This document shows positions 9,177-31,332 of a stretch of 64,000 bases of DNA, in pieces; within the stretch, counting starts at the first letter, position 1; every line of letters begins with the position of its first letter. A program made the position numbers and the translations under genes. Source of the DNA: Cladosporium halotolerans (Eukaryota); contig NW_027191454.1 of the NCBI RefSeq assembly GCF_011745625.1, positions 558,001-622,000 on the forward strand. The letters are read 5' to 3'. The notes below the pieces were generated by a model, which worked only from the letters and a program-made list of their open reading frames with translations, was not told the DNA's origin and searched no databases.

Positions 9177-9402
9177 CGCAGCAGCTGAACATCTGGAGTA
9201 GAGTTCGAGGCGTGATGCGTGACCTGCTGCAGCCTAGCGGGTCACCAACGCGAGAGCACGTGAAAGTGGATAACCGATGACCTCATGCAGCATGAATGGA
9301 TGGTCCAAGTCTGAGGCCTGCGACAGCGCCGGCGCTCTATCCTGCATGCACCACAAACATCGCAGTCTATAACCCACTCGCCATACCTATGTACTCCACA
9401 CA

Positions 9403-10351: not shown

Positions 10352-11686
10352 TCAGACAGCAAGCACTGACGCCTTCTCGGGCACAGTCGCTGGTCCCATC
10401 TCCCGAGCAGCATCTGCTGGCATCTCCAGTTCGGCGGTCTCGGCAGATCGCTTCTGCCCAACAACCTGCGCAGCCTCTTTGCCTTCTTGCGACCCATTCG
10501 TCTCGTTGGACTGCGCTGCGAGTTTTGCGGACTCCTTGTTAAGCTTCTTCCTTTCAGCTTTCGTAAGCTTTGGTTTCTCGAATGCGCCGATTTCAAGCGC
10601 CTCGTCTGTCTTCTTTGCCAATTCAGCAAGCTCGGGCTCTTTGCCCCATCCAAGGGCCTCGACCAGCTCTCCGTAGCTCTTGGTCCGGGTCATCGCTTTG
10701 TAAGCTGGTTGTTTCCCAGGGATCATCTGGCCGAGGAGGTATTTCGTGTTGCCCCAGCGGTTCTCTACCTCCATGGAGATCTTGACATACTCCTTGACCG
10801 CTTCTTCCCACGATGCGATGCCACCATCTGCTTCTGCGCGGAAGCATGAGGGGTTAGTCTCGGCAGCTGTCGCGATCATCGCACCGTCCACGCCGTACTC
10901 TTCCATGAGCTTGTAGGCCTCGTCGCGCGAAGTGACATCTCCATTCATCAAGCATGCGACGCCGGCTTCGTGGCAAGTGTCGGCGACAATCTTCAGTTGG
11001 GCTCTGATTGCTCGTTCGCGCGGTCGCATGGGTGTTGTTCGACAGTGAAGGGTAAGACCGGTGATACCTGTGGCGCAGAGTTGGCGGACAAGAGACTGGG
11101 TTTCCTCGGGCGTGTCTAGAAGACGGATTTTAACGCTGATTCCGATTTCGTTGGGCTCGCCAACTTCTTTTACCAGTGCGCGGAGGATTGAGCACAGCTT
11201 CTCTGGTGTTTTAAGCAAGGCCGCACCCATGCCGCCGGTGGTGCTGAAGGGCTTAGGGCATCCAGCGTTCACATCGATGCCCGCAACATACTTCGCGACA
11301 AGACTTGCGGCTTCGACAGCGGTCTCTGGGTCCGCTGTGCCGATCTGATAGATCAGGCGCTTGCCTTCTCGCTCGGGATGAAGCCGGTAGATGATGCTTT
11401 CTTTCTGGTCGGGGTTGATCAAAGGATTTTTCGAGCCGTTCGAGGAGAGCCTCGAAAAGTCCACGGTCTTCGTCTGTTCGTTGAAAGTCCTCGTGGTTCC
11501 GATCATGGCCTTGTCGATGGTTTCCGGGCCCCAGACAAGATCGGCACCGTACTTCAGCGCAATGAGGCGCGACGGGCACTCTCCAGAGCGCACCATCGGC
11601 GCGAGCACGATTTTGCCGCGGTAGTCGACGCCATTCTTGGGGATTGGGACCTGCTTCGTAATGGACCCCATGATTCTCCTAAGCAT
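10352..11686 (-). CDS. DUS2: tRNA-dihydrouridine(20) synthase (Dus2/Smm1-like)
   Basis: LAPMVRSGE, LIYQIGTA, GIDVNAGCPKPFS..GGMGAALL, SVKIR, TLHCRT and NGDV motifs of FMN-dependent Dus enzymes. The likely start is the ATG at 11686 or 11671. Confidence 0.88.
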   Translation of the reverse strand: MLRRIMGSITKQVPIPKNGVDYRGKIVLAPMVRSGECPSRLIALKYGADLVWGPETIDKAMIGTTRTFNEQTKTVDFSRLSSNGSKNPLINPDQKESIIYRLHPEREGKRLIYQIGTADPETAVEAASLVAKYVAGIDVNAGCPKPFSTTGGMGAALLKTPEKLCSILRALVKEVGEPNEIGISVKIRLLDTPEETQSLVRQLCATGITGLTLHCRTTPMRPRERAIRAQLKIVADTCHEAGVACLMNGDVTSRDEAYKLMEEYGVDGAMIATAAETNPSCFRAEADGGIASWEEAVKEYVKISMEVENRWGNTKYLLGQMIPGKQPAYKAMTRTKSYGELVEALGWGKEPELAELAKKTDEALEIGAFEKPKLTKAERKKLNKESAKLAAQSNETNGSQEGKEAAQVVGQKRSAETAELEMPADAAREMGPATVPEKASVLAV

Positions 11687-13027
11687 TACCAGGGTCTTGC
11701 AAATCACGGGGGGATGGCGGGATGCACAAAGCAGACACAATGAGCTTCGATGGTAGTCGCGTCGGCTCGAGAAACACTGTGCAGTAATCTGCTTGTAACG
11801 AAAAGAGAGTTTGGCGTGGCACGGGTCGGACTCAAAGCCTTGCGGGCGTGCAAAATGAATTTGCCCCAATCCGAAATATGAGCGTCGTCGGGTTTAGCTT
11901 GCCGTTCCAGACGTAACCCAGAACATCGGATGCGCTAAGGGGTAGACGGGTGATCCCGCTGCCTCACGCCTCAGGCATCTTGGCAGCGCGAAGGACTGCA
12001 CCGTTGCGAGGTGCAGCGACGTACAGGCAGGTCGGGCAACGCGTTATGGCGATGGGAGCGGGTGCCAGCGAGCAGAGTACAGCTCATTCTACGGCGAAAG
12101 GCTCCGCGGCGATGGAAATGTCGCATTGCGGCATGATTGAGGCGCAACGTCACGAGTCCTGCACCTAGCATACAAACTACAACACCGTGCAGACACCAGG
12201 CGTGATGTCTTCAGTCAGGCAGGGCACGTTGGCTTTGTCCGGTTTCAGTGAGTGCGTCGCTGGTTGGCCGCATTCGTGGCACGTACGACTCCCTTTCAAA
12301 CAGTGGTCAGCCGCGGAAGAAGCACACCAAGGGCGGTCGCCAGCTTCTCGGCCGCGCGCGCTTGGCCTGCCCTGCCTGGTGTATGTGCCCATCCCGGCAG
12401 CGTTCGCTTAAAATTGTCATTACGCTCGCGTGCTGAGCCTCGTCGGCGCTGACATGCGTCCATTAGCACCCAAGTTCGAGAGTCGCGCACGCGCAGTGTC
12501 GTGCCCGAGCCAAAGCGCCCGGCTCGGGGGGCCTCTCTTTGTGTCGGTGGCCATGTGCCTGGGTGTTGCCGAAGGTTCGGCGGTGCGGTAACGTTCGCGA
12601 TTTGCGTGGTCATCGGTCGGGCTGGGTCCCTGCGCTGCGCTTAGTGCACTAGCGCCGTCCCTCTTCTCTATCTCCAATACACTCGTGTTGCTGGCTCCGA
12701 GCACATCCTCCCTCTTCACTGAATCACCCTGCTGCTAGCCGGCGACGTCGCGTGCCTCTTTCGCTGTCACCCACGCGCCCCGCGCCGTCTCCCATCAGTA
12801 GCATGTGGTCGCTGCATCTATAATTTTCTGGCGTTCAGCGAATGGTTTGCCGCGACTTTCTGTCCTCGCCCTTCTCGAATCAACGATCCTCCTCCAGCCC
12901 GTCGCTCCATCTCGCGTGGACTGATCCTGTCGCCACGCTGACTCCTGCCATTTTTTACTCTTCGACTCATCGACGCGCCTCTGGCTGGAATCGGTAGCGA
13001 TTTTACATTTAGCGTGTCATCATCAAA

Positions 13028-16000
13028 ATGGCAGGGTCGCCTTCTGACGATGGTCCCGCGATCGGGCAGGCTGGCAGCGACGCAACCCCCGACGTATCAG
13101 AGTCGCATTCAACGCCACAGCCGACCACGACAGGTTCTTCGTTCCAGGCCATCAACAGATCGAATGGTAGCCAGAACGATAGTGGCCGCCAGTCTCGCGA
13201 TGTGAGCGCTCGCGCCACGCCTCAGGCGGATGGCGCACCAACAGCAAAGCAAACCACCCAGGCACCTGCCTCAAGCACACTCAAGGCATCAACGCAAGCA
13301 GAATCTACAGAAGGCACTGGCAGCTACGGCACGCGCTCACGGCGGACCGGTAAGGAACGACTCAATTACGCAGAGGACCAGGACGCCGACTTCGACTTCA
13401 CGTCTGCCGCCACGACGACGTCCTACAAAAAGAACGCATCTTCTGCTGCAAATGCGCAGGGCAGTACTGATGCGAAGCGCGCAAAGGAGTCTGTCGCCAC
13501 CAACGGCGCCCATTCCAGCGCAAATAACCAGACCACAGCCAAGGATTCCGCTCCGGGCGCCCCGTCCAGCGGCAGCACCACAAACCCGAAGAAGCGGAAA
13601 GCCGCTGGCACGGCTACACCGACGGGCCAGACGTCAACGCCTCCGGTGAGCGCCGCGCTCGCCACGGCCAACATGCGCAAACAAGCACCTTCGGCCATGG
13701 CGCGCGAGACGAACATGTTGTCGTTTTCGCGGACGAAAGCATGCCTGAACAAAAAGGGCGAGCTCGTCGCGGATGACGGCACGAAATTAAACGTCAACGG
13801 TAAGCGGACGCCGACACATCCCTTTCTGCGAAGCGCGCGATCTTCGCAGAGGTCGCAAGACTTTACCCCGCATTGGGTCTGGCTGGCTTCACTCTGAAAG
13901 GATGCCTTAGGCTAACATGATATGTCTCTAGATCACGTGTACCTCGTTTGCGAACCGCCCGGAGAGCCTTACTACCTCTGTCGCATCATGGAATTCTTGC
14001 ACACAAATTCTGAGGACCGAAATTCCCCTGTCGACTCCCTCCGTGTAAACTGGTACTACCGCCCTCGAGATGTACAGCGCTTCAACAGCGACAGCCGCCT
14101 TGTCTATGCGACAATGCACTCGGACATGTGCCCACTCACGTCTGTCCGTGGCTTGTGTACAATTAAACACCGCTCTGAGATCGACGACTTGGAGCTCTAT
14201 CGCAAGGAAAGGGATACATTTTACTTCGTCCAAGTCTTCGACCGCTTCATCCGCCGCTGGTACGAATGCATTCCAACCTCTCAAATCATCAACGTGCCGG
14301 AAAAGGTCAAGAAGGCCCTCGACGAGCGCTGGAAATTCGTCGCAGTCGAAATCGGCAGGGTCAAAGAGCTCACCAGCGCCGTCAAGACATGCAAACGCTG
14401 CGCGAGATATTGCGCGGCGAATGAATCGGTCGACTGTGCTATATGCAAATTCTCATATCACATGAACTGCGTGCAGCCGCCATTACCGAAGAAACCATCT
14501 CGCGGATTCGCCTGGGCTTGTGCTCCTTGCAGTAGAGCTTCAGAGCGCAAAATCGAAGCCCAACTGACGCCATCCATCAGCGGCGACGTTACTGAGGCTG
14601 AAGCTGAGGAGGAAGAAGTTGCACCTGCGGAGGAAGCGCTGCCCCCGGTTTCGAATGACACCACCAGAGCCCCCAGCCCGAGCGAGTCAGACATAATAAT
14701 CGACGATCACCCGGCCACGCAAGCAGAAATCGCGTTGGCTCAGATGTGGCCTATGCGATATCTCGGAATCCACTGCCGAGTCGAGGATGCATTACAGTAC
14801 GATGACCGCGCCATTTACCCAAGAGCCAGCTCGCGTCTGGGTCCGCGACACCAGGCCAATGTCAACGTGTGGCATGGTCGCCCTGTAGAGCTTGTCAAGA
14901 CGGCCGAGATCAAGAAGCGGTACATGAAGGGTGGTAATAAAAAGGAAGGCAAGCTTTCAAAAGAAACTGTTGCCGCCATCGAGGCCGACCGTGCAGAAAA
15001 GGCCAAGAGGCCTAAATGGGTGCAGGACGAGCCTGTTGGCTATGTCGCGCGTGGCGAGGACTACCCGGAAGATGATCCCCGCTGTACAGCCAAGCTCATG
15101 TTCAAGCTGCCAGAGGAGCCGGACAAGGCTGCCAAAGCCGAGCGAGCCCTCGATCAGTATCTCCCTCAGGCAAAACCATTGGCGAAGAAAATCGGAGTTC
15201 CCCCATTTGGCACCAACTTTCTCGACAAAGCCATGGAGCTCTTTACCAAGACTGGCTACAACACAGACGTTGCGCTCGAAAAGCTTTCCAGGGTCAACCG
15301 TGTCAAGGATCTCCACGAACCTGTGCTGAGCAAGGCCGACTTGGTGAAGTTCGAGGAAGGAGTGGCAAAATACGGTTCCGAGCATCGCCTTGTGCGCCTG
15401 CACATGAAGACTTCGCTACCCAACTCGGACATTGTGCGCTTTTATTACCTTTGGAAGAAGACGCCCAGAGGACGGGAAATCTGGGGTGGCTATCCAGGAC
15501 GCAAGGGCAAAAAGCGACCCGACAACGACACAGCAGCGCGCTTGCACGAAGAAGTCGCCCACGATGCAGATGACTCGGCTTTCGACAACGATAAGGCGGC
15601 AAAGCGAAAGCGTAATTTCCAGTGCAAGTTCTGCGAAACCACACACGCGAGGCAATGGAGGCGAGCTCCGGGCGCTGCTTCTGGTCAAACCGTCATGGTC
15701 GAAGTCAAAGGTGGGCCGAAGGAGAAGCGAGAGCGGATGTTGGTGGCGTTGTGCTTCAGATGCGCCAATCTATGGCGCAAGTACGCGATCCAATACGAGG
15801 ACGTCGACGAAGTCGCGAAGAAGGTGTCTTCAGGCGCCGGTCGAGCCTGGAAGCGCAGGGTTGACGAAGAGCTGCTTCGCGAACTCATCGCAGCGAATGA
15901 AGCTGCCGCTCAGTTCGCGCCAGTGGAGCCATCCGTATCTGGTGCAGATGAACCGCCGAAGAAAAAATCGAAGAACGACGCATCTGGAACACCTCCGGTC

Positions 16001-18406
16001 GTGGAAACAGGGAGGAAGAAAGAGAAGCAGCCTCCCGCGCCGAAGCCCCCTACACCTCCACCGGCTCCGATCATACCAGTTCAGCCCACTTGGAAACCCT
16101 TGCCGTGCGCAGTATGTCACACCGGCAACGACACCATCGCATGTGCGCAGTGCCTGTTGACAGTGCATCGGGGCTGCTTCGGTCTAAGTGAAAATCAGGG
16201 CCCCAACTGGGTTTGCGAGCAGTGCCAGAATGATCGCAATCCCCAGGTGTCTACTGATTATTCTTGCTGCTTGTGCTTGACTGAGGAAACTTTGGTTGAT
16301 CTCGTTGAGATGCCGAAGTCAACCCACAAAAAGAAGACCGATAGAGATCGCGAAAAGGAACGTATGGAGAAGGAGCTGGCCGACAACATGCGCACCGAAT
16401 ATACGCAAAGACAGCTCGCGCAGCATCGCCCTATACTCCCGAGAGAGCCCCTCAAGCCGACGACAGGTAACAACTGGGTCCATGTCTATTGCGCCGTCTT
16501 CACACCAGAGATACGTTTCAGCAACTCTCAAGCGCTTCAAGTCGCTGAAGGTTTCCAAATGATTCCGTCTGCCAGGTACGAAGCTGTCTGCAAGCTTTGC
16601 AAGAACCGCGACCATCAGAACAAGTTGCGAAACGACAAAGGCGCTTGCGTCAACTGCTACCACTGCAACGCAAGCTTTCACGTGTCGTGTGCATTTGAAG
16701 CCGGCTATCAGTTCGGTTTCGATGTCACGCCTGTGAAGGCTTCGCGGAAGGATCAGATAGTCACCGCGAACCTGAATGGAGAATCTGGTGCCTTGACAGC
16801 AGCGATATGGTGCAAGGAGCACGCTGTGAAGACGATCGTTCACCCCATCCAGGAGATCGCAGATGAGAGTGGCAAGACTGCGCTTCAGATCTACGCGGGG
16901 CTCTACAAGCAAGCCGACCTCACATTGACTGGTACTGTGCGCAAGGCTGATCAAGTTCAACTTACTAAGAATAAGGGCCAACACGTCAGTCAAGCAAATG
17001 CTGCGAGCAGGCGCGAATCCACAGCAACCAACGCCACTGTTGGTGCGCGCAGAGGTGCAAGAGCGTCGACAATCGCCGATAGCAAAATGGAAGATGCCGA
17101 TGGTGCGACGGATGCCTCGAGCTTGCGTGAGGGATCAGCTGCTCCAGAGAAGCGCTGCGCAAAGTGTGGAATTGATGTCACTCCTAAATGGCATCTCAAG
17201 CCTAAGGATGGTGCTATCGGCGGTGCCGCTTCACCCAAGGCGGACGATAAGCGCATGTCTATGACATTGGGCGAGATTGCAGACCAAAAGCGCGACCAGT
17301 CTGCAGACTCCAATGGATCTGGGATGAACGGTCTCCACACATCTGACGCTTCGAGACCCCAGCAGAACATTCGCTTCATGGCGCCGGGCGCAAACGGGCG
17401 AGCCTGGGACGGCATGCCCGAGCGCAACGCACCTAGGCTGTCGGAAGCTGACGGTATTCCTGGAAATTCGGCAATGCCTGGTGATGCGGCGATGAACGGA
17501 GAGCAGCGAGGAGCTATCACATCAGGCCCTGTGAACGGTATTGGGGCTGGCAACCACACAGCGGCGGCCAACAAGGCTTCACAGGAGTACTTGTGCCACA
17601 GGTGTTTCGTCAAGAGGAAGCTGGATCCAACTCCACCTCCTGCATCTCCTCCGCCTCGTCGCGAGCTGTCTCCTCCCAAGTCATATCCCCTCCAGTTGGA
17701 TTGGAATGGTCAGAACTCTGCACAGCGGCCACCGCCGCCCACGCCGTGGGACGACCAAGCGAGAGCGGCTCAACCGCCTCCGATGCCTCATGGGCCTCCT
17801 GCAATGGGCGCCATGGGGCCTTCGCCAGGTTTCATGCATCAGCCTCCGCCGCCACCGCATCAGGCCCATGGCTTCCCACCCACTTACCACCATCCGCCCA
17901 ACGGATACCCCGGACCACCTCCTCCTCCCCATGGCAGCTATGGAGCATATCCGCCTCACCAACCACCACCCAACGCGGCCCCGTTCCATCCTAGCCACCG
18001 GCCTCCGCCTATGAATGGATTCCCACCGCCAGGCCAGCCAATGTCCAACGGCATTGGCTCTCCGCACGCGTCGCACATGGGCTTCACGCCGCCCGGAGCT
18101 CCGCACCCGCAGTATGGAGCACGACGGACAGAATCACCATTCTCTACGCAGCTCCCTCCGCTCGGTGGACAGCTGTACGGTGGATCGGGCGCGCACTTCC
18201 CGCACCCTGAGGCGCAACAGCAGCCGCAGCCGCCGCCGCCGAACACTTCGGCCCCGGTCCAGCCGAGCCCTCAAACGGCTCACGCCAGGGTTGAGAGCCA
18301 GAGTGGTCAACCTGGAACACCACATGAAGGCCGTGGCAACGGGACTCCAGCGGCCGGCCCAGGCGGCGCGAGTGCGAGTCCGAGTGTGAAGAACTTGCTT
18401 TCGTGA
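13028..18406 (+). CDS. SNT2: Snt2-like chromatin protein / E3 ligase (BAH, PHD, ELM2, SANT, GATA-like Zn, PHD, ePHD); exons 13028-13799 and 13932-18406
   Basis: Intron 13800-13931 (GTAAGC..GCTAAC..TAG) gives LNVN|DHVYLVCEPPGEPYY (BAH). Also PHD CKRC..CAIC..YHMNC..WACAPC, ELM2 SRLGPRHQA, SANT FEEGVAKYG..VRFYYLWKK and further PHD fingers. Confidence 0.92.
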
Positions 18407-18926
18407 GCGAGGTCTGCGGATACGAAGATCAAAGAGATGAAGAGAAAAGTGTCGGATGATGTATTAGTAGGACTAGACGACCCGAGAGCTATAGCTGTGT
18501 GTATGATGGTGATATCAATTCAATCAGCAATTTTAATTTCACACCACCTTCCCAATGCTGTCGTGGGGTGCCATCGATTCAATTCATGGTTGTCACTACT
18601 AGTGAGACGCCCACAGAGGGCGGTTTGAACATCGCTGCGCATCTCCAATGATTTTTATGCGCTCCATCATTACACTTCACTTTCACATTGCTTGACACTC
18701 GCAAATCGATCCCTAAGTGAATTCGCACCGGCGCCCTCGACTTCCATCAACCGAGCCACAAACCCCATTCCAGCTGGCCAAGGCCCGCCCGCGCCCCACG
18801 CCCCTTCGCGCCGCAGCCCGCCAGCCCGCCGGAGCCCTCACGCATTCACTTTTGACATCGCAACTACATCTGGCACGCGGCATCGCGGACCACCGAACAC
18901 AAGCGTGCAACGCTCGCCCGCCGCAA

Positions 18927-20565
18927 ATGGGCAAGGCCTACAACCAGGACCAGCGCGACCGCGTCAAGCTGCTACTCGAGGCCGGCCGCGATGAGGACAC
19001 CATCGAGAAGGAGACGGGCGTCTCCGACCGCACCATCCGCCGCTGGAAGATGGAGCTCGAGCGCACCGGCCGCATCGGCAAGCCGCCGGAGAGCAGGACG
19101 GGCAGGCATCGGGTGCTGAATGCGGAGGTTGAGAATGTGAGTTTTTGCGCAGGGTATTGGTGGGGAGATGGGCGCGAGCTGACGCGATCGCTTCTAGGCA
19201 CTTTGCGAACATGTCAAGGACAAGCCGGAGATGTCGGTCGACGATATGCTCTGGTGGCTGTACGACACCTACAAGATCGTTGTCGGCACGCGCACGATTC
19301 GCCGGGTTTTCGAGCGCAAGGGCGAGGCGGGCAATAGGTTTAAGAAGGGCAAGCCGGGCGCTGCTGCGACGGATGGCGCGAACAATGCGCCGGACCCTGC
19401 GATCACTCCATCGCCAATGGCGCCGGCGGTGACTGCTGCGGAGGAGCAACAGTACAACAGTCCGTATGCACCGATGGCGGATATGACGCCCCAGCAGAAT
19501 CAGGCCGAGTTGCAGCTTGCGCAGGCGCTTACGAATGCGAATTACCCGCCTCCTCCGCCCGCGCCTTTGGAGATGCCGGTGCAAGAAGAATCGGATGACG
19601 GAGATGACGAGGAGACGCTGCAGCTACAGCTCAAGCAGATTGAGCTGCAGAGGAAGGAGGTGGAACTGAAGCTGAAGATGCGACGGTTGAAGAAAGGCAA
19701 GGACCCGAACACGCCAGAATCAGGGCGCAAGCCTTCCGTTCCCTTCAACGAGACGAGTTCTCTATACAAGCCCGAGGCGCATCTTGGGAACGAACCGCCG
19801 AAGCGCGATTCGCGCAGCAAGAAGAAAATCGAAGAGTCCAAGCGTAGGACTGCCGAACGACAAGAGCGCATGCTGCGCGATCTGGAGCGCCGCAGTAGGC
19901 GTCGCGAGCACCTTACAGCGGAGTGGGTGCAGAGCAAAGACATATGGCCGCTTCGCGCGCAAGGTGTTTTGGCAGAGCTCATGCATCAGTACATCTATTA
20001 CACGTTCAACCAGAACAGCATTGAAACGTTTGAAGCTATGTATCGCGACCTTTATCAGCTCGTCGATCTCGGCAAAGGCGACTGGGACCCTAGCATCCAC
20101 GATGAGATGCTGCGCGAACGCATGAAACGGAAAATGGGCCAACTGCGCTCCAAGATGCAGAAGACCGGCGAGATCATTGGGCGTGGCGATGGCTACGGCG
20201 GGTGGCAGAAAGCCGACGACTACACTGGCGAGCAAGCGGGCAACATACTCGGGGGAGACGATACACACGACCTCCACGACGACGGGATGGATCCCCATCA
20301 CGACCCTGCGATGCAGGTGGCGCAAGCGAGCATCCAGGCGCAAGCAGGCGCGCAACGGCAAGTGCCGTCAGCGGAAGAACAAATGCATTACGAGCCTGTA
20401 CCAGATCCCCAAATGGGCGCCCAGCATGGCCAGCCGATTTATGGCAACCCTCCGATGATGCATCACCAGCAGGCCCCGCCTTATCCCATGATGGATGACC
20501 ACCATGCGGCGATGCTACCGTACGGCCAGCTCCCACCCGGTCATGAGAATGGTATGGTGATGTGA
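18927..20565 (+). CDS. ~525-aa protein with an N-terminal IS630/Tc1-transposase-like bipartite HTH domain, a coiled coil and Q/P-rich tails; exons 18927-19136 and 19198-20565
   Basis: Intron 19137-19197 (GTGAGT..GCTGAC..TAG, phase 0) joins MGKAYNQDQRDRVKLLLEAG..IEKETGVSDRTIRRWK..TGRHRVLNAEVEN|ALCEHVKDKPEMSVDDMLWWLYDTYKIVVGTRTIRRVF in frame with the 444-aa ORF at 19231. Confidence 0.8.
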
Positions 20566-21106
20566 GGTCTTGTGGCGGTGTGGGCGGATATTGATCTTGG
20601 TCCGGGCTTTTGCACGGTTGTCTGTTACTCGCGTGATACCACTTGCTTTCCGCGTTACTCCGATGTATTGGAATTACTTTTTTCTCAGGCGTCCATCCTA
20701 GGTACCTAGGACGTCTGCAGTCACTCGACGCCTCTATCTGCCCGCTCCTCCTTCCATTTCCCTCCGTCACACGCACCTGGGCAATCTCCACGAGCTTTCC
20801 GTCCCAGCCACAATGCATGGCCTGACGCGTGGCTCAGTGCAAGAAACCTGATTGTGGCATCTGCGCCCAGAAGCTTTAACCGACCCCCCTGTCGCTCTCG
20901 TTCCTCACTACTTGCTCGGTGACGTAGCCAGCCCTGCAGCCTTGCGACAGGATCACCCCACGCGCGAGCCCAGACTTCGACCCCACCAACCGCGATACCC
21001 GGCGGGGCGCGCACCTGCCGCTGGAAGCCAGACGGGCCACAAGCACGCAGGCAAGCAACCGTGCCGCCGCGGGATCGTCCCTTGCTCATCCCTAGAAACT
21101 CAGATC

Positions 21107-22850
21107 ATGGACGCGCCGCACTCGAGCAGCACGTCCAGCGATCCGCTCGCGCTCCCGCCGCCTGAGGTTCTCGCGGAGATTGCGCGCAAGCAAGATGCGC
21201 GGGCCGCGGAGCTGCGCGCGGCGAGGGCAGAGCTGCGGCGGCAGTCGAAAGAGGTCGCCGGCTTCAGCGAGGAGCAGAAACATGCCGCCGTGTTGATCCA
21301 GAAGAACTACCGCGGGCACAGGACGAGGAGGGCCATGCAGGGCTTTTCCATGGATCCGAGCGTGCGGTGGATCGAAGTAAGAGCTTGCCGTTGCGACGAT
21401 TTGGTGGGGAGACGTGTGCTGACGACGGTGTGATAGGCGCTGAAAGAAGGTACCGAGATGGTGTAGATCAGGTCTCCGAGGGGTGTAGCTAACACGAGCC
21501 ACAGCTCAGTATAACAATGCCACCGCGCCCAGGTCGCGCAACGATCGTCGCCATCCCAGCTTGTCCTCTCCCTCTGCGACTCCTGCTCGCGAACGCTGGA
21601 AGCGTGCTACTGCGGTTGCGCACAGGGCGGGGAGCGACGATACTTCTGAGAGCGAACATGACGGCGACACAAAGGAGGACAAAGCGCTGGCGCGCGAGCG
21701 GAAGGCACGGGAGAAGAGGCGAAGGGAGAAGTACGCAAAGACGATGGGTCTGGACTACTTCCTGGAAATGGTAGATCACAAGCACAGATATGGGAGCAAC
21801 TTGCGGCGGTATCATAAGGAGTGGAAGCAGTCAGATACGCACGAGAACTTCTTCTACTGGCTTGACTATGGCGAAGGGAAAGACATCGATCTACCCGACA
21901 GACCACGCAAACGCCTGGATACTGAACTGGTTCGCTACCTCTCTCGCGAGGAGCGACAGAAGTACCTCATTCATATCGACAATACCGGTCGTTTTGTCTT
22001 CTCTAAAAACGGCGTACCCGTTACCACCGCTCCAGAGTTTAAAGACAGCATTGACGGCATAGTACCATTCGACGACCCCACGCCCACCTGGCGCGAAGTC
22101 ACAACAGGAGTAAAAGATCCTCCTCCCCACCCAGCCGACTCGGACTCCGATTCCGCCTCGCTCTCTTCCCTCTCTTCCATAGGCACTGGCGCGCAGGAGG
22201 ACTCTTCAAAATACACCAACGACGAGCTGCACGACGCCAAAGGCCTCGCCAAACTCAACCACCTCAGCACCAACAGCCTAATGAACCACCTCCTCCGCAA
22301 GACGACCAAGAAGAACACCTGGATCTTCGTCGCCGACACCAGCATGCGCATGTACCTCGGCATCAAGCAGTCCGGCGCCTTCCAGCACTCCTCCTTCCTG
22401 CACGGCGCCCGCGTCGCAGCCGCGGGCCTCATCAAGATCAAGCGCGGCCAGCTGCGCAAGCTCTCGCCGCTGTCCGGCCACTACGCGCCGCCCGTGCGCA
22501 ACTTCCGCGAGTTCGTGCGCAGTCTCAAAGAAGCCGGAGCCGACATGAGCCGCTGCTCGATCTCGCGCTCGTACGCCGTCATCCTGGGGCTGGAGAGCTA
22601 CATCCGGACGAAGAACCAGGCCAAGAAGGCTGAGCGCGGCGTCATAGAGCTCGTCAACCCGGACGAGAAGCGCAGGCGCGAGCAGAAGGAGTTCGACAAC
22701 AGCGAGAGCGCGGCGAAGGAGCGCGAGGTGCTGAGGCTGGAGGAGGAGAGGCGGAAGAGCGAGAACGGAGTCGGTGCTAGGGTTCGGCGGGGGTTTTCGA
22801 CGAGCTTACCTTATCGGGCGAGGAGTGGGAAGCACGAGGAGCCTGTTTGA
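21107..22850 (+). CDS. IQ calmodulin-binding motif protein of the IQM type; exons 21107-21376, 21437-21449 and 21505-22850
   Basis: IQ motif AAVLIQKNYRGHRTRR. IQM-family motifs YFLEMVDHKHRYGSNL..YH..W, FFYWLDYGEGK, WIFV, FQHSSFLHG..AAG and SGHYAP. Two GT-AG introns with branch points keep the frame. Confidence 0.82.
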
Positions 22851-23276: not shown

Positions 23277-26004
23277 TAAATGATGAAAGTATCACAACCG
23301 CCGGTCTAGACACTACTCGTGTGAAGGATGTTTGGTCCTCGATGACGGAAATGGAACTCCGTCTACATGTCACGGAGATATGTCAATACGTTGCAATGGT
23401 TGATCGAGGTCGCTTTCTGTCTCGACGTATAATTCAGCGTTCACATTCAGACTGATCGAAGAATGGTTGAACGAGAAAGCTTCGAACTTTGGTGACACAC
23501 AAGCTATGCACTCACCGAAGCAAGTAGACATGTACTGTTTCACTAGCGATGAGACGATGCTCGAAAACCTGTATTCCTACATGCCCAAGACATCGAGAAT
23601 TGCGGATCGTCAGGGTCGTTGCTGCCGGATCGCCAGGGCAAGCACGGCAGAATGTCTGTTCTAGACCGATTTGTACCCTTGGCCTCAAGGATGGATGCAG
23701 AAACGTCCCGTCTTGGGCAAACGAGGGCGGTACAGTAGACAATCAAGAATGGTCGTCCATCGCACGGCAAATAGCAGAGTAGAAGGAGCGGTCCATTCGT
23801 GACAGTGGTTGAAGCCAGGCAGGAGCAAAATGACTTCGTTCACCTTGTTCTGACTTCACCCCCGTTACATCACCGCCACTCTGCGCGATCCAATCACCAC
23901 TACGGGGTGCCTGACACGACGCATACTTCTGAAGCGGGCCCCGATACTGTCGACCCTTGTCGACGACCAACACCTGCGCCCATCACACTGCAGCTGGAAA
24001 GTCAATCGAACACTCGTCCATGTTTCAGAACCCGCAGCTATCTAGTTGAACACGATGGTACTCACGCGGGCGTATTCCCCTGCTCGGACACCGCAAGCAG
24101 TCGGGCAAAACCATCCACAAAAATCCCCAAGTGATGTATGTACGATGTCAACGAGCTCCCGGACGCCCGTCCGAGCCTGGAACCAGGCACACAAGACCGT
24201 GAGATCCGAGGGCGCTAGGATGTCCATTGATGAAAAGGCATGAACCTTGCGCAACTCGCTGCAGGAACAGACGAACAGCCACGGGGAAAGCTGTCATTCT
24301 ACGCCATCGCGTCATGCCCCCAGAGAAAAATCGCAACTTGGAAATTCATCGACCGGCTGGTCGGGAGGTGGACACCAGCCACCGACTCCTGCCGCCTGGC
24401 GACCGCGCCGCGACTGCTGAAAAGGGCATGAGCATCGGAGACAAATGCGACTGACTTCCCGCCCCTTCTATTGGTCTCAGGCCAGACTGCATTCTGTGGC
24501 AGCGGCCGGAGTTGACTGCCGAGTTGGTTTTGCGTGTCGCCCGCCTGCATAGATCGATGTCTTTGTGCACGAATCCACAGACTATCTGCAGACTTATATC
24601 ATCCTACTTCATGTGGTCGAAGCGTCCTACCGCCATGCCGGAAACTACTCATCGCAAACGGCGTCCGAGCTTCAGAGCACGTTTTCTCAGCGTCCTAGTG
24701 TCGCAATAAGATTGCAGATTAGATCAGTGGTACGCAACGCTTGGAGGCCGCATTTTGGCTCGACCACGCGCGACGCAATTGCTAGCCGGAAGCTTGAGGC
24801 CTGCAGGCTCGCCAACGGTCGCCAATCATGCCGGACGCTGGCCGCGAGACTTCAGCGTGCAACTGCAAGCGGCTAAAGACAGGCGAGAGCGCTGCACAGG
24901 CCAGAAGGACACGAAGGGACTTACCACGCGTGTAACCTTCTTCTCCAGCATACAGCAATATGCACATAGACGCACGCCATGTTGCTTTCGTCGCAACTCT
25001 GTAGATCAACCAACTATGGGCCATCTTGAATCGCGGCCTGCGCGATGCAGGAGGTGGCACGTATCGTTGTGGCTGGCCTCGCAAGCGCTCAACCGCTCTT
25101 GGTCGCGCGGATCGACGATGGTGCTCACTCCTGCTGAGCCATCACGATCGGAGTGGCTGACGAGCAGGAGACGCTACAGCTCGCAGTGACAAGATGCTCA
25201 GGCCTGATTCGGGCAGAGCTGTCCGAGGGCACGGCAGAGCGGCCACACGAGAGCCACCACAGCAGAGCTACCACACTCACAGCTACCACATCATGGCACC
25301 TGGTCGTGGCTCGTTGTGTGGCTCACAAGCTACACACCACTGCTCAACGACACGTGGGTAGCCAAACTCACAGTGTCACTTTCACGAGTCCTCGAGTCTA
25401 CTGTAGCCGGGTATGACGTAGGGCGCGAGCGCTGGACTCGAGCCAAACTTGTATCGCATAACCCCAGCCCAACGTCAACACGACGCAACGGAGGGCACGG
25501 TTGCGATTCCACGAAACATGCCGTCACTCGCTTGCGTCGTACTACTCCAAACCTGCCGACAGGCCGGAGGTAAGTCTAGCCAGCACCAATGGCCACGATC
25601 GACACCATAGTTGCTTGGCCAGAGCGGCCACCCGGCCTTGCGCCCCTCACCTGTGGCTGCAGCTGCGCTGGGATAGCTGGCGCCATCCCTGTCGTCTTGA
25701 TGCATCCACCCGCTGCGCGACGCTGTGGCGACGTCATGTCCCGTCTTTCGATTGCGATGCGTTCAGTCGATGGCCGACCAGATGGGACCCTGGCATGTCA
25801 TGTCCCATGCCCTGTGCTGTGGTAGCTGCTCGTCGAGCTCCCAGCTATATCAGAAAAACCACAGCCACACTTCCCTCCCTTCCTACTTTTTCCCCCATTA
25901 TTGTTTCCTCCCAAACAATTTCCTCCCTCCTCAAACTCCCAATTCAATTATACGAAGACTGTACGATTGTTACGACCTACACTCAATCTAGTTAATGCTC
26001 CCTG

Positions 26005-29000
26005 TTGTGCATGCCCACCAGCAACTCTAGTCAATACGCCTACTACTCTTTCCCCCCAACTCCCGACAGACGCTCTCCAGCCACAAGCCGGGGATCTTCA
26101 TCGAAAACAGACTCTTCCAACAAGACAATCCGCAACCTAGACAGCATGGCTCCCTCTCCCGCGGCCGGTAAGCAGCAGGCCAGCGCCGCCCCCAAGACTC
26201 CCACCAAGCTTGGAAGGAAGCCCGGAAACACCCCCCAGAAGCTCGGCCAGTCCGCGACCAAGGGTGCGCAGGGCGCAACCAAGTCCACTCCCAAGTCCAC
26301 TCCCAAAGGTGCCGCCTCGAACGTCGGCCAGCAGGCCGGCAAGGCCCAGGACACCGCCAAGGGTGCCGCTGAGCAGGCCCCGAAGAACGTCGAGCTCAAG
26401 GATGATGAGAACGACGACGACGAGGGCGAGGGCGAGGGTCTGATGAGCAAGGTCTCTCAGGCCGGCGAGAAGGGCAAGGAGGGCCTTGAGGAGGCCGCTC
26501 CCGAGCCCGTCCAGGACGACGACGACGAGAACGAGAATGACGACGACGATGACGACAACGCCGTCGAGGGCGCCACCAAGCAGGCCGAGGGCGCCGCCGA
26601 CGATGCCCAAGAAGAGGGCGAGGACGTCGCCGATGACGCCACCGAGAAGGCTGGCCAGGTCGGCGAGTCCGCTGACGAGACCCAGGACGACGGCGACGGC
26701 GACGAGCAGGAGGGCCAGGAGGGTGGCCAGCTGCTCTCCGGCGCCAAGGGTCTTGCGGGCAAGGCTTCTGGCCTCGCTGGCAACCAGGACCCGAAGAAGG
26801 CTGCTGAGGACGTCAAGGACGGCGCTCAGGAGACCGCTGAGGGTGCCGCTGAGGAGGGCCAGAAGGTCGCCGGCGAAGCCACTGATGAGGCTGGCGAGGC
26901 TGCCGAGGACGCCAAAGACGGCGCCGAGGATGCTGCCGACGACGCCAAAGAGGGCGTTGAGGGCGCTGCTGATGACGCTCAAGACCAGGCCGAAGGTGCT
27001 GTCGAAGGCGCCGAAGACACCGCCGAAGGCGCCGAAGACGCCGCTGAGGATGCCCAGGACCAAGCTGAGGGTGCCGCCGAGGGCGTCTCCTCCGTCGGTG
27101 ACTTGAACGTTCTCAAGGGCCTTGAAGTCCAGCCTGATGGAAACATCGTCGACGCTGAGGGCAACCCGATCGGCAGACTGTCCGAGGGCGACGCCGAGGA
27201 CCTCGAGGGCTACCCGATCGGTGAGAACGGCGAGATCCTCGATGACGACGGCGATCTTGTCGGCCGCGTTGAGCTCCTTCCTGACGAGATCAAGAGGCAG
27301 GTCAAGGAGGCTCGCGAGCAAGGCGAGGAGCTCCCCGAGGGCGCTGAAGAGTACCTCGACGACGATGACGAGGAGGGTGAGGGTGAGGATGATGATGAGG
27401 GCGATGACAATCTCCCTAGCCTCGCCATTCTCGACGGTCTCACTTGCCAGGTCGACGGCCTCATCTACGACTCTGATGGCAACACCATCGGCAAGGTCAC
27501 CGAGGGCGACCCCTCTGAGCTCCAGAACGCTACCCTCAACTCCGAGGGTGAGTTCATTGACGAGGATGGAAACGTCGTCGGCTACGCTGCCATTCACGAG
27601 GATGCTGCGGATCTCGTCGAGCAGGGCATCTACGAGCCCGCCAGCGCCGCCACTGATGCCGCCGAGGGCGCCGAGGATCAGCTCGACGACGCTGCCGGCG
27701 AGGCCGGTGACGCCGTCGATGGTGCCGAGGATGCCGCCGAGGATGCCGCCGAAGACGCCCAGGACCAGGCCGAGGGCATCGAGGACGAGCTGCCCGGCAT
27801 CGAGGCTCTCGAGGGCAAGGAGCTCAATGAGGCCGGCGAGATTGTCGGCTCTGACGGCGACGTCCTCGGCAAGATCGAGGACGACGAGATTCGCCAGAAG
27901 ATTGAGGATGGCGAGATCGATCCTGACACCCTCAAGATCAACGAGGATGGCCAGGTGGTCGACGAGGATGGCAACATCCTTAGCGCCACAGAGCTCGTCG
28001 ATGGCGCTGCCGAGAAGCTCAGCAAGCTCGCTCCTACCTACGACATCCGCATCCTTGGCGACCGTAAGGTCAACAAGAAGGGCAAGGTCCTCGACGACGA
28101 TGGCGAGGAGATCGGCCAGCTCACTGAGGGTGACCCCGCCAAGTGCGCCGGCAAGAAGATCAACGAGAAGGGCGAGGTTCTCGACAAGGATGGCAAGGTC
28201 CTTGGCAAGGTTGGCATCACTGAGGGTGAGGCCGCCGAGACCGCCACCAAAGAGCTCCTGGAGGAGCTTGGCGAGCTGCCCGGCCAGGACCTGCCCGGTC
28301 TCGAATCTCTTGAGGGCCTGAAGGTCAACAAGAAGGGCCAGATCCTCGATGAGGATGGCGAGCCCATTGGTGAGCTCACCGAGGGTGATCTTGCCCAGTG
28401 CGCTGGCAAGAAGGTCAACGACCAGGGCGAAGTCCTTGACAAGGATGGCAAGACCGTCATCGGCAAGGTCCGTACTCTTGCTCCTCAGGGCGAAGAGGAG
28501 GAGCAGGAGGAGGAGCAGCCTGAAGAAGGCGAAGGCGAAGGCGAAGGCGAGGAAGAGCAGGAGGGCGAGGGTGAGGAAGAGGAGGAGGGTGACGGCCTTC
28601 CTCCCCTTTCCATCCTCGATGGCCTCACCGTCAACAAGGCTGGCAAACTGATTGACAGCAACGGAAACGTTGTTGGCGAGCTTGTTGAGGGTGACGCCAA
28701 GAAGCTCTCCAAGTCCGGCCTCACTGCCGACGCCGAGGGCCAGTTCTGGGACAACAAGGGCAACGTCATCGGCCGTGCCCAGACCGTTCCCCAAGAGGAG
28801 AGTGAGGAGGAAGCTCCTTTCGCCGGCCTCGAGGGTCTCAAGGTCATTGAGAACGGCTACGTTGCTGACGAGAATGGCAACATCGTCGGTGTCGTCACCG
28901 AGGGTGAGGCTAAGAAGCTCATTGGTCGCGCCGTCGACGAGGACGGTGATATCATCGACAAGAAGGGCTCCGTCGTTGGCCATGCCGACCGCTACGAGGA

Positions 29001-31179
29001 GGAGGAGGCTCCTGAAGAGGAGGCCGCTGACCTCTCCTTCTTGCAGGGCAAGACCGTCAACAAGGCTGGTGTTGTCATTGGCGACGAGGGCACTCCCATT
29101 GCCCGCCTCGTCGAGGGCAAGGCTAAAGAGGTCGCCGGCAGGAAGCTCGACACCGAGGGTCAGCTCTGGAACGACCAGGGCCAGGTCATTGGACGCGTCG
29201 AGCTCATCCCCGAAGAGGAGCGCGAGTCCAAGCCGGAAGGCCCCTTCGCCGGCCTCGAGGACCTCCGTGTCATCGAGGGTGGCAAGGTCGCCGACGAGGA
29301 CGGCAACGTTGTCGGCGAGATCGTTGAGGGCAACCCCAAGCGCCTGGTCGGTCTCTCCGTCGATGAGGATGGTGACATTGTCGACAAATACGGCAACGTC
29401 AAGGGCCACGCCGAGCCGCTGCCCCAGGAAGAGGAGGAGGAGGTTGACAACAGCATCCTCGAGAACAAGGAGCTCAACAAGCAAGGCTACGTTGTCGACG
29501 AGCAGGGCATTCCCTACGGCCGTCTCGTCGAGGGCAACGTGAAAGAGCTGGCTGGTCGTCGCTGCGACGAGAACGGATACATCTACGGTGACACCGGCAA
29601 GGTCGTCGGCCGCTGTGAGGTCATTCCTGAGAACGAGCGTGTCGCTCGTCCTGAGGGTCCGTTCGCTGGTCTCGAGGGCCTGCGCGTCGTCAAGGACGGC
29701 AAGGTCGAGGACGCCGATGGCAACGTCGTTGGCGAAATCGTCGAGGGCAACGCTAAGCGTCTTGTCGGCCTTGCTGTTGATGAGGACGGTGATATTATCG
29801 ACAAGTACGGTAATGTCAAGGGCCACGCAGACCCGTGGGAGGAAGAGGAGGAGCCTGAGGTCGACCTCTCTGCTCTCGCTGGCTGCACCATCAACAAGAC
29901 TGGCAACGCCGTCGACGGTAACGGCACCATCATCGGCCACGTCGTCGAGGGTGACGTCAAGTCTATGGTTGGCAAGAAGGTCGATGGCCAAGGTCAGATC
30001 TGGGACAACGCTGGCAACGTCGTCGGACGCTGCGAGCTTGCTCTTGGTGAGGACACCAGCCCTGAGGGTCCCTTCGCCGGCTTCGAGGGTCTTCAAATCA
30101 ACAAGGACGAGACCATCACCACACCCTCTGGCGACATTGTCGGTCGCATCATCGAGGGCGACATCAAGAAGCTTCTTGGCCACACTGTCGAGGAAGATGG
30201 CGACATCATCGACAAGAACGGCAACAAGATCGGTGCTGCCGAGCGCTGGGAGCCCGAGGAGAAGGAGCGTCGCGTCAACCCCATGTCTGGCATGCGTGTC
30301 AACAAGGAGGGCGAGGTCCGTGACGAGAACGGTGACCTGGTCGGCCGTCTCACTGACGGCAACCTCGGCCACTGCGTCGGTCAGGAGATCGACGACAACG
30401 GCAACGTCGTCGACCAAGACGGCAACAAGATCGGCGAGTGCACTCTCCTCGAGAACATCGATGAGGAGGAGTACGAGGGCCCCTCTGAGGAGGAGCTCGC
30501 GGAGGCCGCCAAGCGCGAGGAGGAGCGCAAGATCGCCGAGAAGATGGGCTCCATCTGCCAGCAGACCCTCGAGCGTGTGCAGCCCGTGTGCAAGCAGATC
30601 AAGGAGCACATGGAGAAGGCTGACCGTACGCCCAAGGACGAGCTGGACGAGGAGCAGCTCGTCAACGACGTCAAGCCTCTCATCGAAGAGGGCGGCCGTA
30701 TCCTGCAGGAGTGCAACGGCTCCCTGCGCGGTCTCGACCCCGACGGCAAGATCGCTGCGCAGGCCAAGGGCCGTGCTGGCACCGGCGAGGCTACCCCCGA
30801 GGAGCACCGTCTTGCCGAGACCCTCAAGGAGATTACCACTACTGTCGTCACCACCATCGACGACGCGAAGAAGAAGCTGAACGACATGCCTCACGCCAAG
30901 AAGAAGCTGAACCCGCTCTGGGGCCTGATGACCCAGCCGCTCTTCCAGATCCTCGCCGCCGTCGGCCTCCTGCTGGCCGGTGTCCTGGGTCTCGTTGGCC
31001 AGCTGCTCAACGGCCTCGGCCTGGGTGGTCTCGTCAACGGTCTGCTCGGCGGCCTCGGCATCAACAAGCTGCTCCAGTCCTTCGGTCTGGGCGGTGATGA
31101 CAAGAAGGGCAAGAAGAAGGGTGGCAGCGCCATTAGCAGCCTGCCCATCGTCGGTGGCATGCTCGGTGGTGGCAAGTAA
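26005..31179 (+). CDS. Very acidic LEA-like / DUF3659-repeat protein (~1700 aa) with a C-terminal helical and Gly/Leu hydrophobic domain
   Basis: Intronless ORF with strong C-ending codon bias. Many repeats of L.GL.VNK.G.I.D.DG..VG.L.EGD.KKL.G..VDE.G.I.DK.G.V.G, LEA-like AEDA repeats, and a C-terminal LFQILAAVGLLLAGVLGLVGQLLNGLGLGG. The true start may be the ATG at 26011 or 26146. Confidence 0.85.
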   Translation: MCMPTSNSSQYAYYSFPPTPDRRSPATSRGSSSKTDSSNKTIRNLDSMAPSPAAGKQQASAAPKTPTKLGRKPGNTPQKLGQSATKGAQGATKSTPKSTPKGAASNVGQQAGKAQDTAKGAAEQAPKNVELKDDENDDDEGEGEGLMSKVSQAGEKGKEGLEEAAPEPVQDDDDENENDDDDDDNAVEGATKQAEGAADDAQEEGEDVADDATEKAGQVGESADETQDDGDGDEQEGQEGGQLLSGAKGLAGKASGLAGNQDPKKAAEDVKDGAQETAEGAAEEGQKVAGEATDEAGEAAEDAKDGAEDAADDAKEGVEGAADDAQDQAEGAVEGAEDTAEGAEDAAEDAQDQAEGAAEGVSSVGDLNVLKGLEVQPDGNIVDAEGNPIGRLSEGDAEDLEGYPIGENGEILDDDGDLVGRVELLPDEIKRQVKEAREQGEELPEGAEEYLDDDDEEGEGEDDDEGDDNLPSLAILDGLTCQVDGLIYDSDGNTIGKVTEGDPSELQNATLNSEGEFIDEDGNVVGYAAIHEDAADLVEQGIYEPASAATDAAEGAEDQLDDAAGEAGDAVDGAEDAAEDAAEDAQDQAEGIEDELPGIEALEGKELNEAGEIVGSDGDVLGKIEDDEIRQKIEDGEIDPDTLKINEDGQVVDEDGNILSATELVDGAAEKLSKLAPTYDIRILGDRKVNKKGKVLDDDGEEIGQLTEGDPAKCAGKKINEKGEVLDKDGKVLGKVGITEGEAAETATKELLEELGELPGQDLPGLESLEGLKVNKKGQILDEDGEPIGELTEGDLAQCAGKKVNDQGEVLDKDGKTVIGKVRTLAPQGEEEEQEEEQPEEGEGEGEGEEEQEGEGEEEEEGDGLPPLSILDGLTVNKAGKLIDSNGNVVGELVEGDAKKLSKSGLTADAEGQFWDNKGNVIGRAQTVPQEESEEEAPFAGLEGLKVIENGYVADENGNIVGVVTEGEAKKLIGRAVDEDGDIIDKKGSVVGHADRYEEEEAPEEEAADLSFLQGKTVNKAGVVIGDEGTPIARLVEGKAKEVAGRKLDTEGQLWNDQGQVIGRVELIPEEERESKPEGPFAGLEDLRVIEGGKVADEDGNVVGEIVEGNPKRLVGLSVDEDGDIVDKYGNVKGHAEPLPQEEEEEVDNSILENKELNKQGYVVDEQGIPYGRLVEGNVKELAGRRCDENGYIYGDTGKVVGRCEVIPENERVARPEGPFAGLEGLRVVKDGKVEDADGNVVGEIVEGNAKRLVGLAVDEDGDIIDKYGNVKGHADPWEEEEEPEVDLSALAGCTINKTGNAVDGNGTIIGHVVEGDVKSMVGKKVDGQGQIWDNAGNVVGRCELALGEDTSPEGPFAGFEGLQINKDETITTPSGDIVGRIIEGDIKKLLGHTVEEDGDIIDKNGNKIGAAERWEPEEKERRVNPMSGMRVNKEGEVRDENGDLVGRLTDGNLGHCVGQEIDDNGNVVDQDGNKIGECTLLENIDEEEYEGPSEEELAEAAKREEERKIAEKMGSICQQTLERVQPVCKQIKEHMEKADRTPKDELDEEQLVNDVKPLIEEGGRILQECNGSLRGLDPDGKIAAQAKGRAGTGEATPEEHRLAETLKEITTTVVTTIDDAKKKLNDMPHAKKKLNPLWGLMTQPLFQILAAVGLLLAGVLGLVGQLLNGLGLGGLVNGLLGGLGINKLLQSFGLGGDDKKGKKKGGSAISSLPIVGGMLGGGK

Positions 31180-31242
31180 GCAATTACTCGCTAGCCAGCG
31201 CTTCTTACTTAGCATGATGTTGTAGAAGAAAGAGCTCGGACC

Positions 31243-31332
31243 GGTGGGAGGAGAGTTTCATTTGTCAGACCAATAACCAATACGAAGAGGAGGTTTACGC
31301 GCCAGGTGGGAGGAGGGTTTCATTTGTCAGAC
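31243..31332 (+). repeat. 28-bp direct repeat (2 copies, 1 mismatch) in the 3' region of the LEA-like gene
   Basis: GGTGGGAGGAG(A/G)GTTTCATTTGTCAGAC at 31243-31270 and 31305-31332. Confidence 0.85.

Follow-up and report, generated by a model that had tools for sequence, protein, structure and literature searches.

The gene at positions 18927-20565 on the plus strand of a 64,000-nucleotide stretch of Cladosporium halotolerans DNA (contig NW_027191454.1; this whole stretch is called the window below) most likely encodes a domesticated transposase DNA-binding domain fused to other protein parts, a reading to which we give a probability of roughly 0.78. The gene has two exons and a product of 525 amino acids, which begins with a double helix-turn-helix (HTH) head of the IS630/Tc1 type and continues into a long body of a different character. 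A first-pass annotation, made from the letters alone, had proposed a transposon-derived host gene at this place, and that proposal stands: the nearest relatives outside the gene's own family are IS630/Tc1-like, the locus is syntenic and under purifying selection, and its RNA is spliced.

The assignment of the head to the IS630/Tc1 type, also made in the first pass, agrees with the sequence comparisons. Pfam HTH_32 matched residues 36-107 in all four orthologs tested (E 1.6e-8 to 1.4e-6), accompanied by weak matches to HTH_Tnp_1, HTH_29 and HTH_Tnp_IS630. The NCBIfam IS630 model NF033545 aligned residues 10-130 with its positions 2-124 of 299 at E 6.6e-11 and 42 bits, a score that falls under the model's whole-protein cut-off of 100 bits; exon 1 of the window alone matched the NCBIfam IS630 model at E 6.9e-7, and the NCBIfam IS481 model was matched as well (E 1.2e-8). 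By BLASTP, P0018, a full-length ortholog 57% identical, aligned with P0178 without gaps from residue 1 of both proteins (34/112 identical, 30%; 60% positives; E 3e-20), and with the complete Tc1-like transposase P0224 at 27% over 133 residues (E 1e-12). When the family alignment was compared by hhalign with an alignment of eight fungal transposases, family residues 1-119 fell on transposase columns 5-123 of 370 (119 columns; probability 99.5%, E 1.4e-22), with zero alignment past them. Searched against the window by tblastn, transposases P0244, P0178 and P0204 matched exon 1 (E 3.6e-9 to 6e-4) and P0199, P0242 and P0224 matched 19198-19374; seven transposases or transposase fragments used in this way matched the 64-kb window at 18927-19374 only.

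We also ran an exhaustive hidden Markov model (HMM) search with a profile of 22 orthologs against 1.84 billion representative proteins, which returned 193 proteins at E<=1e-3, 73 at E<=1e-10 and 33 at E<=1e-30. The strong matches are the family and its fragments; beyond about E 1e-14 come proteins that cover profile positions 1-130 only. Twenty of these N-terminal-only matches were tested against NCBIfam, and the IS630 model was found in 20/20 and was the top family in 19/20, the exception being P0252, where an acetyltransferase match in another part of the protein is stronger. Three of the 20 (P0204, P0224 and P0244) lie above the IS630 cut-off of 100 bits and are complete transposases, with HTH_32 followed by DDE_3 (Pfam). 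The head is therefore not one that matches generic HTH families only, an outcome that would have counted against the first-pass reading. The named sources of the head relatives are Ascomycota, mostly Dothideomycetes: P0178 belongs to Botryosphaeria dothidea (two accessions) and P0224 to Paraphaeosphaeria minitans, where five or more near-identical members bear the name 'Tc1-like transposase DDE domain-containing'; further named relatives come from Polychaeton citri, Acrodontium crateriforme and a metagenome-assembled genome of a Dirinaria lichen.

To these searches we added a maximum-likelihood tree of 72 HTH regions (14 from the family, 6 with a recognised DDE domain and 52 others; near-duplicates excluded). 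A branch with support 100/98 separates the 14 family rows from all others, with P0178 as the sister of the family (97/92), and rows that carry a DDE domain are found on both sides of the remaining tree. Terminal branches measure 0.03-0.2 in most family rows and up to 0.92 in the three most divergent, the median over all rows being 0.71. The tree is consistent with a family nested inside the transposases, depending on where the root is placed, and is no proof of that nesting. The domain itself is homologous to that of transposases and most likely derives from one, the direction of descent being read from the distribution of the relatives and from the unrooted tree.

An AlphaFold2 model, made for P0018 from the 22 orthologs, bears out the double HTH and GRxR linker that had been noticed in the first ~115 residues. 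It contains two three-helix bundles (helices 7-18/23-30/34-47 and 66-78/84-95/101-122), for which the predicted local distance difference test (pLDDT) is 83-93 by block and drops to 61 in the linker block 51-60. The connecting segment contains PPE.RTGRHRV, invariant in the 22 orthologs, and both recognition helices, SDRTIRRWK and GTRTIRRVFERKG, are invariant in the orthologs together with the GRHR linker. Foldseek against the PDB placed the Pax6, Prd and Pax5 paired domains, the SETMAR DNA-binding domain and the Tc3 bipartite domain in its top five, with E 3.4e-3 to 0.12 and a root-mean-square deviation (rmsd) of ~15 A, which is this large because the two bundles are freely oriented in the model (6pax_A: E 3.4e-3, rmsd 14.7 A over 119 columns; SETMAR 7s03_A: E 8.6e-2); the full-length model had no PDB match at E<=1e-3. 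VIA-align scored Tc3 domains at Z 6.7-6.9, and resolvase, homeodomain HTHs and TrpR likewise at Z 6-7. The predicted topology fits a paired-like bipartite HTH, and the structure searches alone do not discriminate. A family-profile sequence search of solved structures returned one chance-level row, a BAG5 helix at E 0.24.

Beyond the head, we looked for the remaining parts of a transposon. The first-pass annotation had seen no DDE motif after the head, and in our searches exon 2 had no match in Pfam at E<=10 or in NCBIfam at E<=1, four orthologs tested against Pfam at E<=1 gave no DDE family, and the catalytic parts of transposases had no tblastn match below E 0.2 in the window. Nor did tblastn reveal a second copy of the gene within the 64 kb. 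No credible terminal inverted repeats (TIRs) were found in 18300-21200, where the sole flanking inverted pair, 19 nt at 89%, falls within the coding regions of two neighbour genes. GC content at the locus is even, at 0.57-0.63, with no AT-rich stretch of the kind associated with repeat-induced point mutation (RIP). Both of these absences had been recorded in the first pass. Compared with an autonomous IS630/Tc1/mariner element, the gene has the N-terminal bipartite HTH; DDE_3 and TIRs with a TA duplication were not found.

The gene is transcribed as host mRNA, as expected of a domesticated gene. In metatranscriptome run X15 a 184-nt contig connects 19136 directly with 19198, without a mismatch and with exactly 61 nt removed, which matches the spliceosomal intron predicted from the sequence, and parts of the coding sequence (CDS) are covered by RNA contigs from four runs in four studies. 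This evidence consists of assembled contigs and is silent on expression level, conditions and transcript ends; RNA runs X15-X20 contain small shares only of the sampled words, and uncovered parts of the gene carry no meaning. Full-length orthologs are continuous across the exon junction in the alignment (..VE(N/A)ALF.HV..), and in 9/9 close loci examined an intron of 56-71 nt lies at the window's position.

Intron position varies by lineage. In the window and in loci L001-L010 it follows codon 70, in L011-L013 it follows codon 52 or so, and in the Aureobasidium-like L024-L026 codon 41 or so; there the window's intron site is uninterrupted coding sequence, and the read-through is visible in P0111. 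In L005, L007, L008 and L009, RLV or LLV stands in place of MGK before AYNQDQ, which leaves the start codon, or else a very short first exon, ambiguous in these loci.

We next consider the distribution of the family. A word-indexed search found 123 relatives, and all the named ones are Dothideomycetes (Peltaster, Fulvia, Septoria, Pseudocercospora, Lecanosticta, Hortaea, Friedmanniomyces, Baudoinia, Neohortaea, Piedraia, Polychaeton, Acrodontium and Aureobasidium); Cryomyces and 'Dothideomycetes sp.' came from other searches. The relatives are annotated as hypothetical or uncharacterized, or bear domain-derived names only. Two are labelled Quercus suber, presumably through fungal contamination. 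One metagenome scan yielded 27 loci. Of the 15 loci whose upstream flank is at least 1.2 kb long, 11 have an SNT2-like gene immediately upstream on the same strand; of the 14 whose downstream flank is at least 1.7 kb long, 12 have the same two genes downstream. These counts include redundant locus pairs (L014 equals L015, and L005 and L002 carry the same genes as L008 and L010). The upstream neighbour in the window, taken for SNT2 in the first pass, carries the domains of an SNT2-like protein (Table 1). In L004 the SNT2-like gene is inverted and lies about 3.2 kb downstream (L004:12587-17056), a local rearrangement.

The first-pass annotation had also looked to syntenic orthologs with a ratio of nonsynonymous to synonymous substitution (dN/dS) well below 1, and this is what we found. 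By the Nei-Gojobori method, applied to eight sequences in 28 pairs, dN/dS was 0.032-0.081 for the whole gene in 28/28 pairs and 0-0.071 for the HTH part. In the nine unsaturated pairs, in which the proportion of synonymous differences (pS) is 0.39-0.48, the whole-gene value was 0.032-0.075, with 0-0.030 in the HTH part and 0.021-0.049 in the basic helix and C domain, and three pairs had zero amino-acid differences in residues 4-115 at pS 0.30-0.33. The gene is under strong purifying selection and is kept at a syntenic locus, two marks of a domesticated gene. The HTH-coding part (18927-19332) itself has a pS of 0.30-0.68, under that of the rest of the CDS in most pairs (~0.65-0.75 in distant pairs); such a pattern could come from biased codon use or from a constraint on the nucleotides themselves at the 5' end.

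Many of the N-terminal-only relatives are open reading frames (ORFs) of 108-240 amino acids that resemble truncated transposase calls, and one might read the gene in the same way, as a decaying or non-autonomous Tc1/IS630 copy or as the OrfA-like gene of a still-mobile element. We find this barely credible. A multi-copy element with TIRs is not what we observe: there are no TIRs in the searched interval, synteny is conserved, and neither a second copy nor a DDE remnant is present in the 64 kb. A dN/dS of 0.03-0.08, 0 amino-acid changes in the HTH between some species pairs, a conserved intron that is spliced in RNA and a conserved non-transposase body of 410 residues likewise argue against decay.

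The body of ~410 amino acids contains nothing transposase-like, as judged by Pfam and NCBIfam on exon 2 and by hhalign. Because no transposase match was found in it, we describe the head as probably fused to host parts. The coiled coil, basic stretch, C-terminal helical domain and Q/P/H tail that had been noted earlier are all present in the translation, and the first three are modelled as helices. In the heptad helix L, L, I, L, E and K are invariant in the 22 orthologs, and a variable spacer separates it from the basic helix, a putative nuclear localisation signal or nucleic-acid contact. A reading of the basic helix as bZIP was dropped, since no bZIP family came up in the Pfam searches, whether at E<=1 or at E<=10. 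A homodimer prediction for two copies of residues 195-410 (heptad helix and C domain) scored 0.01, which is uninformative either way. The proportion of nonsynonymous differences (pN) in the tail is only 0.07-0.10 against close relatives despite its low pLDDT, and the tail motifs QYEPVPD and MLPYG recur in orthologs.

The C domain also occurs alone, in six small, unnamed proteins found by the exhaustive HMM search (P0185, P0186, P0203, P0209, P0210 and P0227); tblastn with P0186, P0209 and P0227 matched the window at 19930-20223 only. In a search for more stand-alone proteins, P0186 as query retrieved itself only, and the A2 profile search returned the family itself and one weak extra, the unnamed 204-aa protein P0282 (E 1.4e-4). 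A model of the C domain built from stand-alone P0186 (29-row alignment, pLDDT 82.9) has the order helix-helix-helix-hairpin. Its best VIA matches were E2F8, APC2-WHB, cullin-WHB and E2F-DP at Z 5.5-6.1, its Foldseek E was at least 0.56, and its atlas TM scores to winged-helix domain (WHD) families were 0.38-0.55, all under the tools' marks; an atlas feature search gave 0.77, under the lead level. We therefore treat the winged-helix-like prediction as a lead and not as an assignment.

Pieces of the gene seem to have been copied into NLR-like (NOD-like receptor) genes. P0177 (777 aa) has NACHT/NPHP3_N domains and two copies of the family's heptad motif (E 9.9e-16), P0131 (699 aa) has the C domain (E 1.1e-48) behind a different, zinc-finger-like N-terminal module, and this zinc-finger-like module is common to P0131 and P0177 (28% identity, E 2e-8).

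Several observations count against a captured transposase domain. HTH_32 exceeded its 33.7-bit cut-off in only one of the four orthologs. The sister row in the tree, P0178, is a 149-aa fragment without a demonstrated DDE domain, and the tree is unrooted, with no outgroup, 115 columns and many open forks. All structural matches fall under the tools' marks (Foldseek E>1e-3; VIA Z<8), and therefore the paired-like fold rests mainly on the sequence profiles and the predicted topology. The fusion to host parts is argued from the absence of any transposase match in the body. Synteny is broken upstream in 4/15 loci (L004, L011, L012 and L016) and downstream in 2/14 (L021 and L026). Finally, dS is saturated in most comparisons with the window (pS ~0.7), which makes those ratios rough.

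Some of these points would suit a lineage-specific, ordinary HTH regulator, whose likeness to transposases reflected old homeodomain-like ancestry or a capture in the opposite direction: most Pfam scores are under the curated cut-offs, homeodomains, the resolvase HTH and TrpR match at the same Z of 6-7, and the tree is without an outgroup. We nevertheless consider such an origin improbable. The match is colinear over the full bipartite module of 112-119 residues, including the GR linker, and is not a match to one HTH; the closest relatives are multi-copy DDE_3 transposases from the same fungal class; the family occurs in Dothideomycetes only, whereas HTH_32+DDE_3 has a wide distribution; and 20/20 tested outside matches are IS630-like.

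We propose that the bipartite, paired-like HTH module of a fungal Tc1/IS630-type (HTH_32+DDE_3) transposase was retained in a host gene, and that the transposon ends disappeared together with the catalytic DDE domain. This module would have been placed ahead of the heptad helix, the basic helix, the winged-helix-like domain and the low-complexity tail in a fusion born early in Dothideomycetes and kept at one locus, under strong purifying selection. The two HTH bundles and the GRHR linker would bind a bipartite DNA site in the manner of Tc3, SETMAR and Pax paired domains, each bundle perhaps reading a major-groove half-site and the basic linker touching the minor groove, because binding of this kind is known for Tc3, Mos1/SETMAR and Pax paired domains. 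Self-association or partner binding may fall to the heptad helix and C domain, nuclear import or an additional nucleic-acid contact to the basic helix, and the Q/P/H tail could act as a low-complexity effector that recruits transcription or chromatin machinery. The protein is probably a sequence-specific, DNA-binding nuclear regulator, although we hold this less firmly than the origin of its head; DNA binding, nuclear location, oligomerisation and a regulatory role are all predicted, as is the role of transcription or chromatin factor suggested in the first pass.

The same origin could instead have given rise to a genome-defence or chromatin-organising factor that recognises cognate Tc1-like ends and silences or clusters the elements, a possible function that we think unlikely. 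SETMAR and KRABINER bind mariner TIRs, fission-yeast CENP-B homologues bind retrotransposon long terminal repeats, and related Tc1-like elements are present, in multiple copies, in Dothideomycetes. Domesticated transposase DNA-binding domains often retain TIR specificity (10.1101/2020.05.07.082677; PMC9062482). However, both recognition helices stay unchanged across fungi with a rapid turnover of transposon families, and a fixed host target therefore fits better than a fast-evolving transposable-element target. A bolder variant, which we regard as a long shot, is a Dothideomycete-wide surveillance factor for Tc1-like ends, with its heptad motif and C domain copied into the NACHT proteins P0177 and P0131 as integrated baits. 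If that were true, fungal NLRs would guard a transposon-control protein, and transposase domestication would be linked to innate immunity.

We compared the gene with known systems. It is colinear with fungal Tc1/IS630-like transposases (HTH_32+HTH_33+DDE_3, such as P0224) over the N-terminal 112-119 residues, in the order HTH1, GR linker and HTH2, at 27-30% identity and with HTH_32 in the same position in the gene family and the transposases. Unlike them, it has neither DDE_3 nor TIRs, occupies a fixed syntenic locus under purifying selection and carries an unrelated body of 410 residues. It resembles SETMAR and the vertebrate host-transposase fusions (KRABINER and other KRAB fusions) in keeping a Tc1/mariner-type DNA-binding domain without transposition and in having that domain fused to non-transposase domains (10.1101/2020.05.07.082677). 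It differs from KRABINER and SETMAR in having no KRAB and no SET, a body without a named family, a fungal host and an age much greater than that of the primate and bat cases; SETMAR, moreover, retains an inactive catalytic domain, whereas the fungal gene has none. A further likeness is to the 'DNA-binding-module pathway' of Tc1/mariner domestication that one paper reports for CG4570, cag and toy in Drosophila (PMC13548663), but unlike those cases and Pax the fungal gene would be an independent event, with a different C-terminal architecture. The gene shows the features that these sources name for vertebrate fusions and Drosophila module domestications (10.1101/2020.05.07.082677; PMC13548663).

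Two other memberships were considered and rejected. No PAX (PF00292) match was found at E<=1 in four orthologs, and the likeness to Pax paired-domain proteins is at the level of fold only. As to the CENP-B/pogo group, four orthologs gave no match to CENP-B_N, HTH_Tnp_Tc5 or DDE_1 at E<=1; CENP-B-like proteins retain a DDE_1-derived domain. The Cryomyces ortholog P0281 bears the UniRef label 'HTH CENPB-type domain-containing'. Fungal CENP-B-like proteins (Abp1/Cbh1/Cbh2, pogo-derived) are likewise transposase-derived host proteins with two N-terminal HTH motifs (PMC4231638). Unlike in those pogo-derived proteins, the source transposon of the fungal gene is of the DDE_3 (Tc1/IS630) type.

Literature searches within one library of open-access full texts returned no paper on this fungal family. 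To our knowledge, few domesticated DNA transposases have been recognised in fungi, namely the pogo-derived CENP-B-like proteins and Kat1 and alpha3 of Kluyveromyces. The gene would add a clean fungal case in which a Tc1/IS630-type DNA-binding domain alone was captured and joined to other protein parts. Its mode of origin has good precedents, and the example is old and class-wide, conserved across a class to which many plant pathogens and extremotolerant black yeasts belong. Through it, proteins labelled hypothetical, uncharacterized or by domain acquire a named origin, a bipartite DNA-binding activity is predicted, and a new conserved C-terminal domain outside the assigned families is defined.

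Table 1. Parts of the gene and its neighbours in the window. Positions are those of the window; residue numbers in the model are those of ortholog P0018.
Feature	Position	Strand	Basis or remark
FAN1-like nuclease	6504-9233	-	VRR_NUC, FAN1_HTH, FAN1_TPR
Dihydrouridine synthase	10352-11893	-	Neighbour gene
SNT2-like BAH-PHD gene, upstream neighbour	13922-18406	+	Pfam BAH, PHD, zf-HC5HC2H
Exon 1	18927-19136	+	70 residues, translation: HTH1 (..IEKETGVSDRTIRRWK..) and basic GRHR linker
Spliceosomal intron	19137-19197	+	61 nt, GT..AG, phase 0
Exon 2	19198-20565	+	455 residues and TGA stop, translation
HTH2 (..MSVDDMLWWLYDTYKIVVGTRTIRRVFERKG), residues 71-115	19198-19332	+	HTH_32 over residues 36-107 of orthologs; model helices
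Linker, residues 116-208, poorly conserved	19333-19611	+	pLDDT <50 in ortholog model; dN/dS 0.15-0.34 where computable
Motif Y(N/Q)SPYAP	19453-19473	+	Lone conserved short motif of the linker; Y, P, Y invariant in 22 orthologs
Amphipathic heptad helix (ETLQLQLKQIELQRKEVELKLKMRRL), putative coiled coil	19612-19692	+	Model helix 202-231, pLDDT ~80-85
Long, very basic helix (PPKRDSRSKKKIEESKRRTAERQERMLRDLERRSRRREHLTAEWVQSK)	19795-19938	+	Model helix 270-312; nearly invariant in 22 orthologs
C domain (DIWPLRAQ...TGEIIGRGDGYGGW), ~90 residues	19939-20202	+	Three predicted helices and beta hairpin, winged-helix-like; dN/dS 0.02-0.05
Q/P/H-rich tail, residues 406-525, and TGA	20203-20565	+	Translation; pLDDT <50
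Small IQ-motif ORF	21107-21433	+	Syntenic with the gene in most relatives
Conserved 453-aa ORF, no Pfam family	21489-22850	+	Syntenic with the gene in most relatives

The IS630-like HTH module also precedes unrelated domains in other proteins. In P0252 it stands before an ArsN1-like acetyltransferase, the 754-aa Acrodontium protein P0243 has an IS630-like HTH under the UniRef name linalool dehydratase/isomerase domain-containing, and P0217 is another database match with the module before an unrelated domain; these three may be either further captures or merged gene models. Elsewhere in the window, two stop-to-stop open frames of 1727 aa (plus strand, 25996-31179) and 1706 aa (minus strand, 26137-31257) overlap almost fully.

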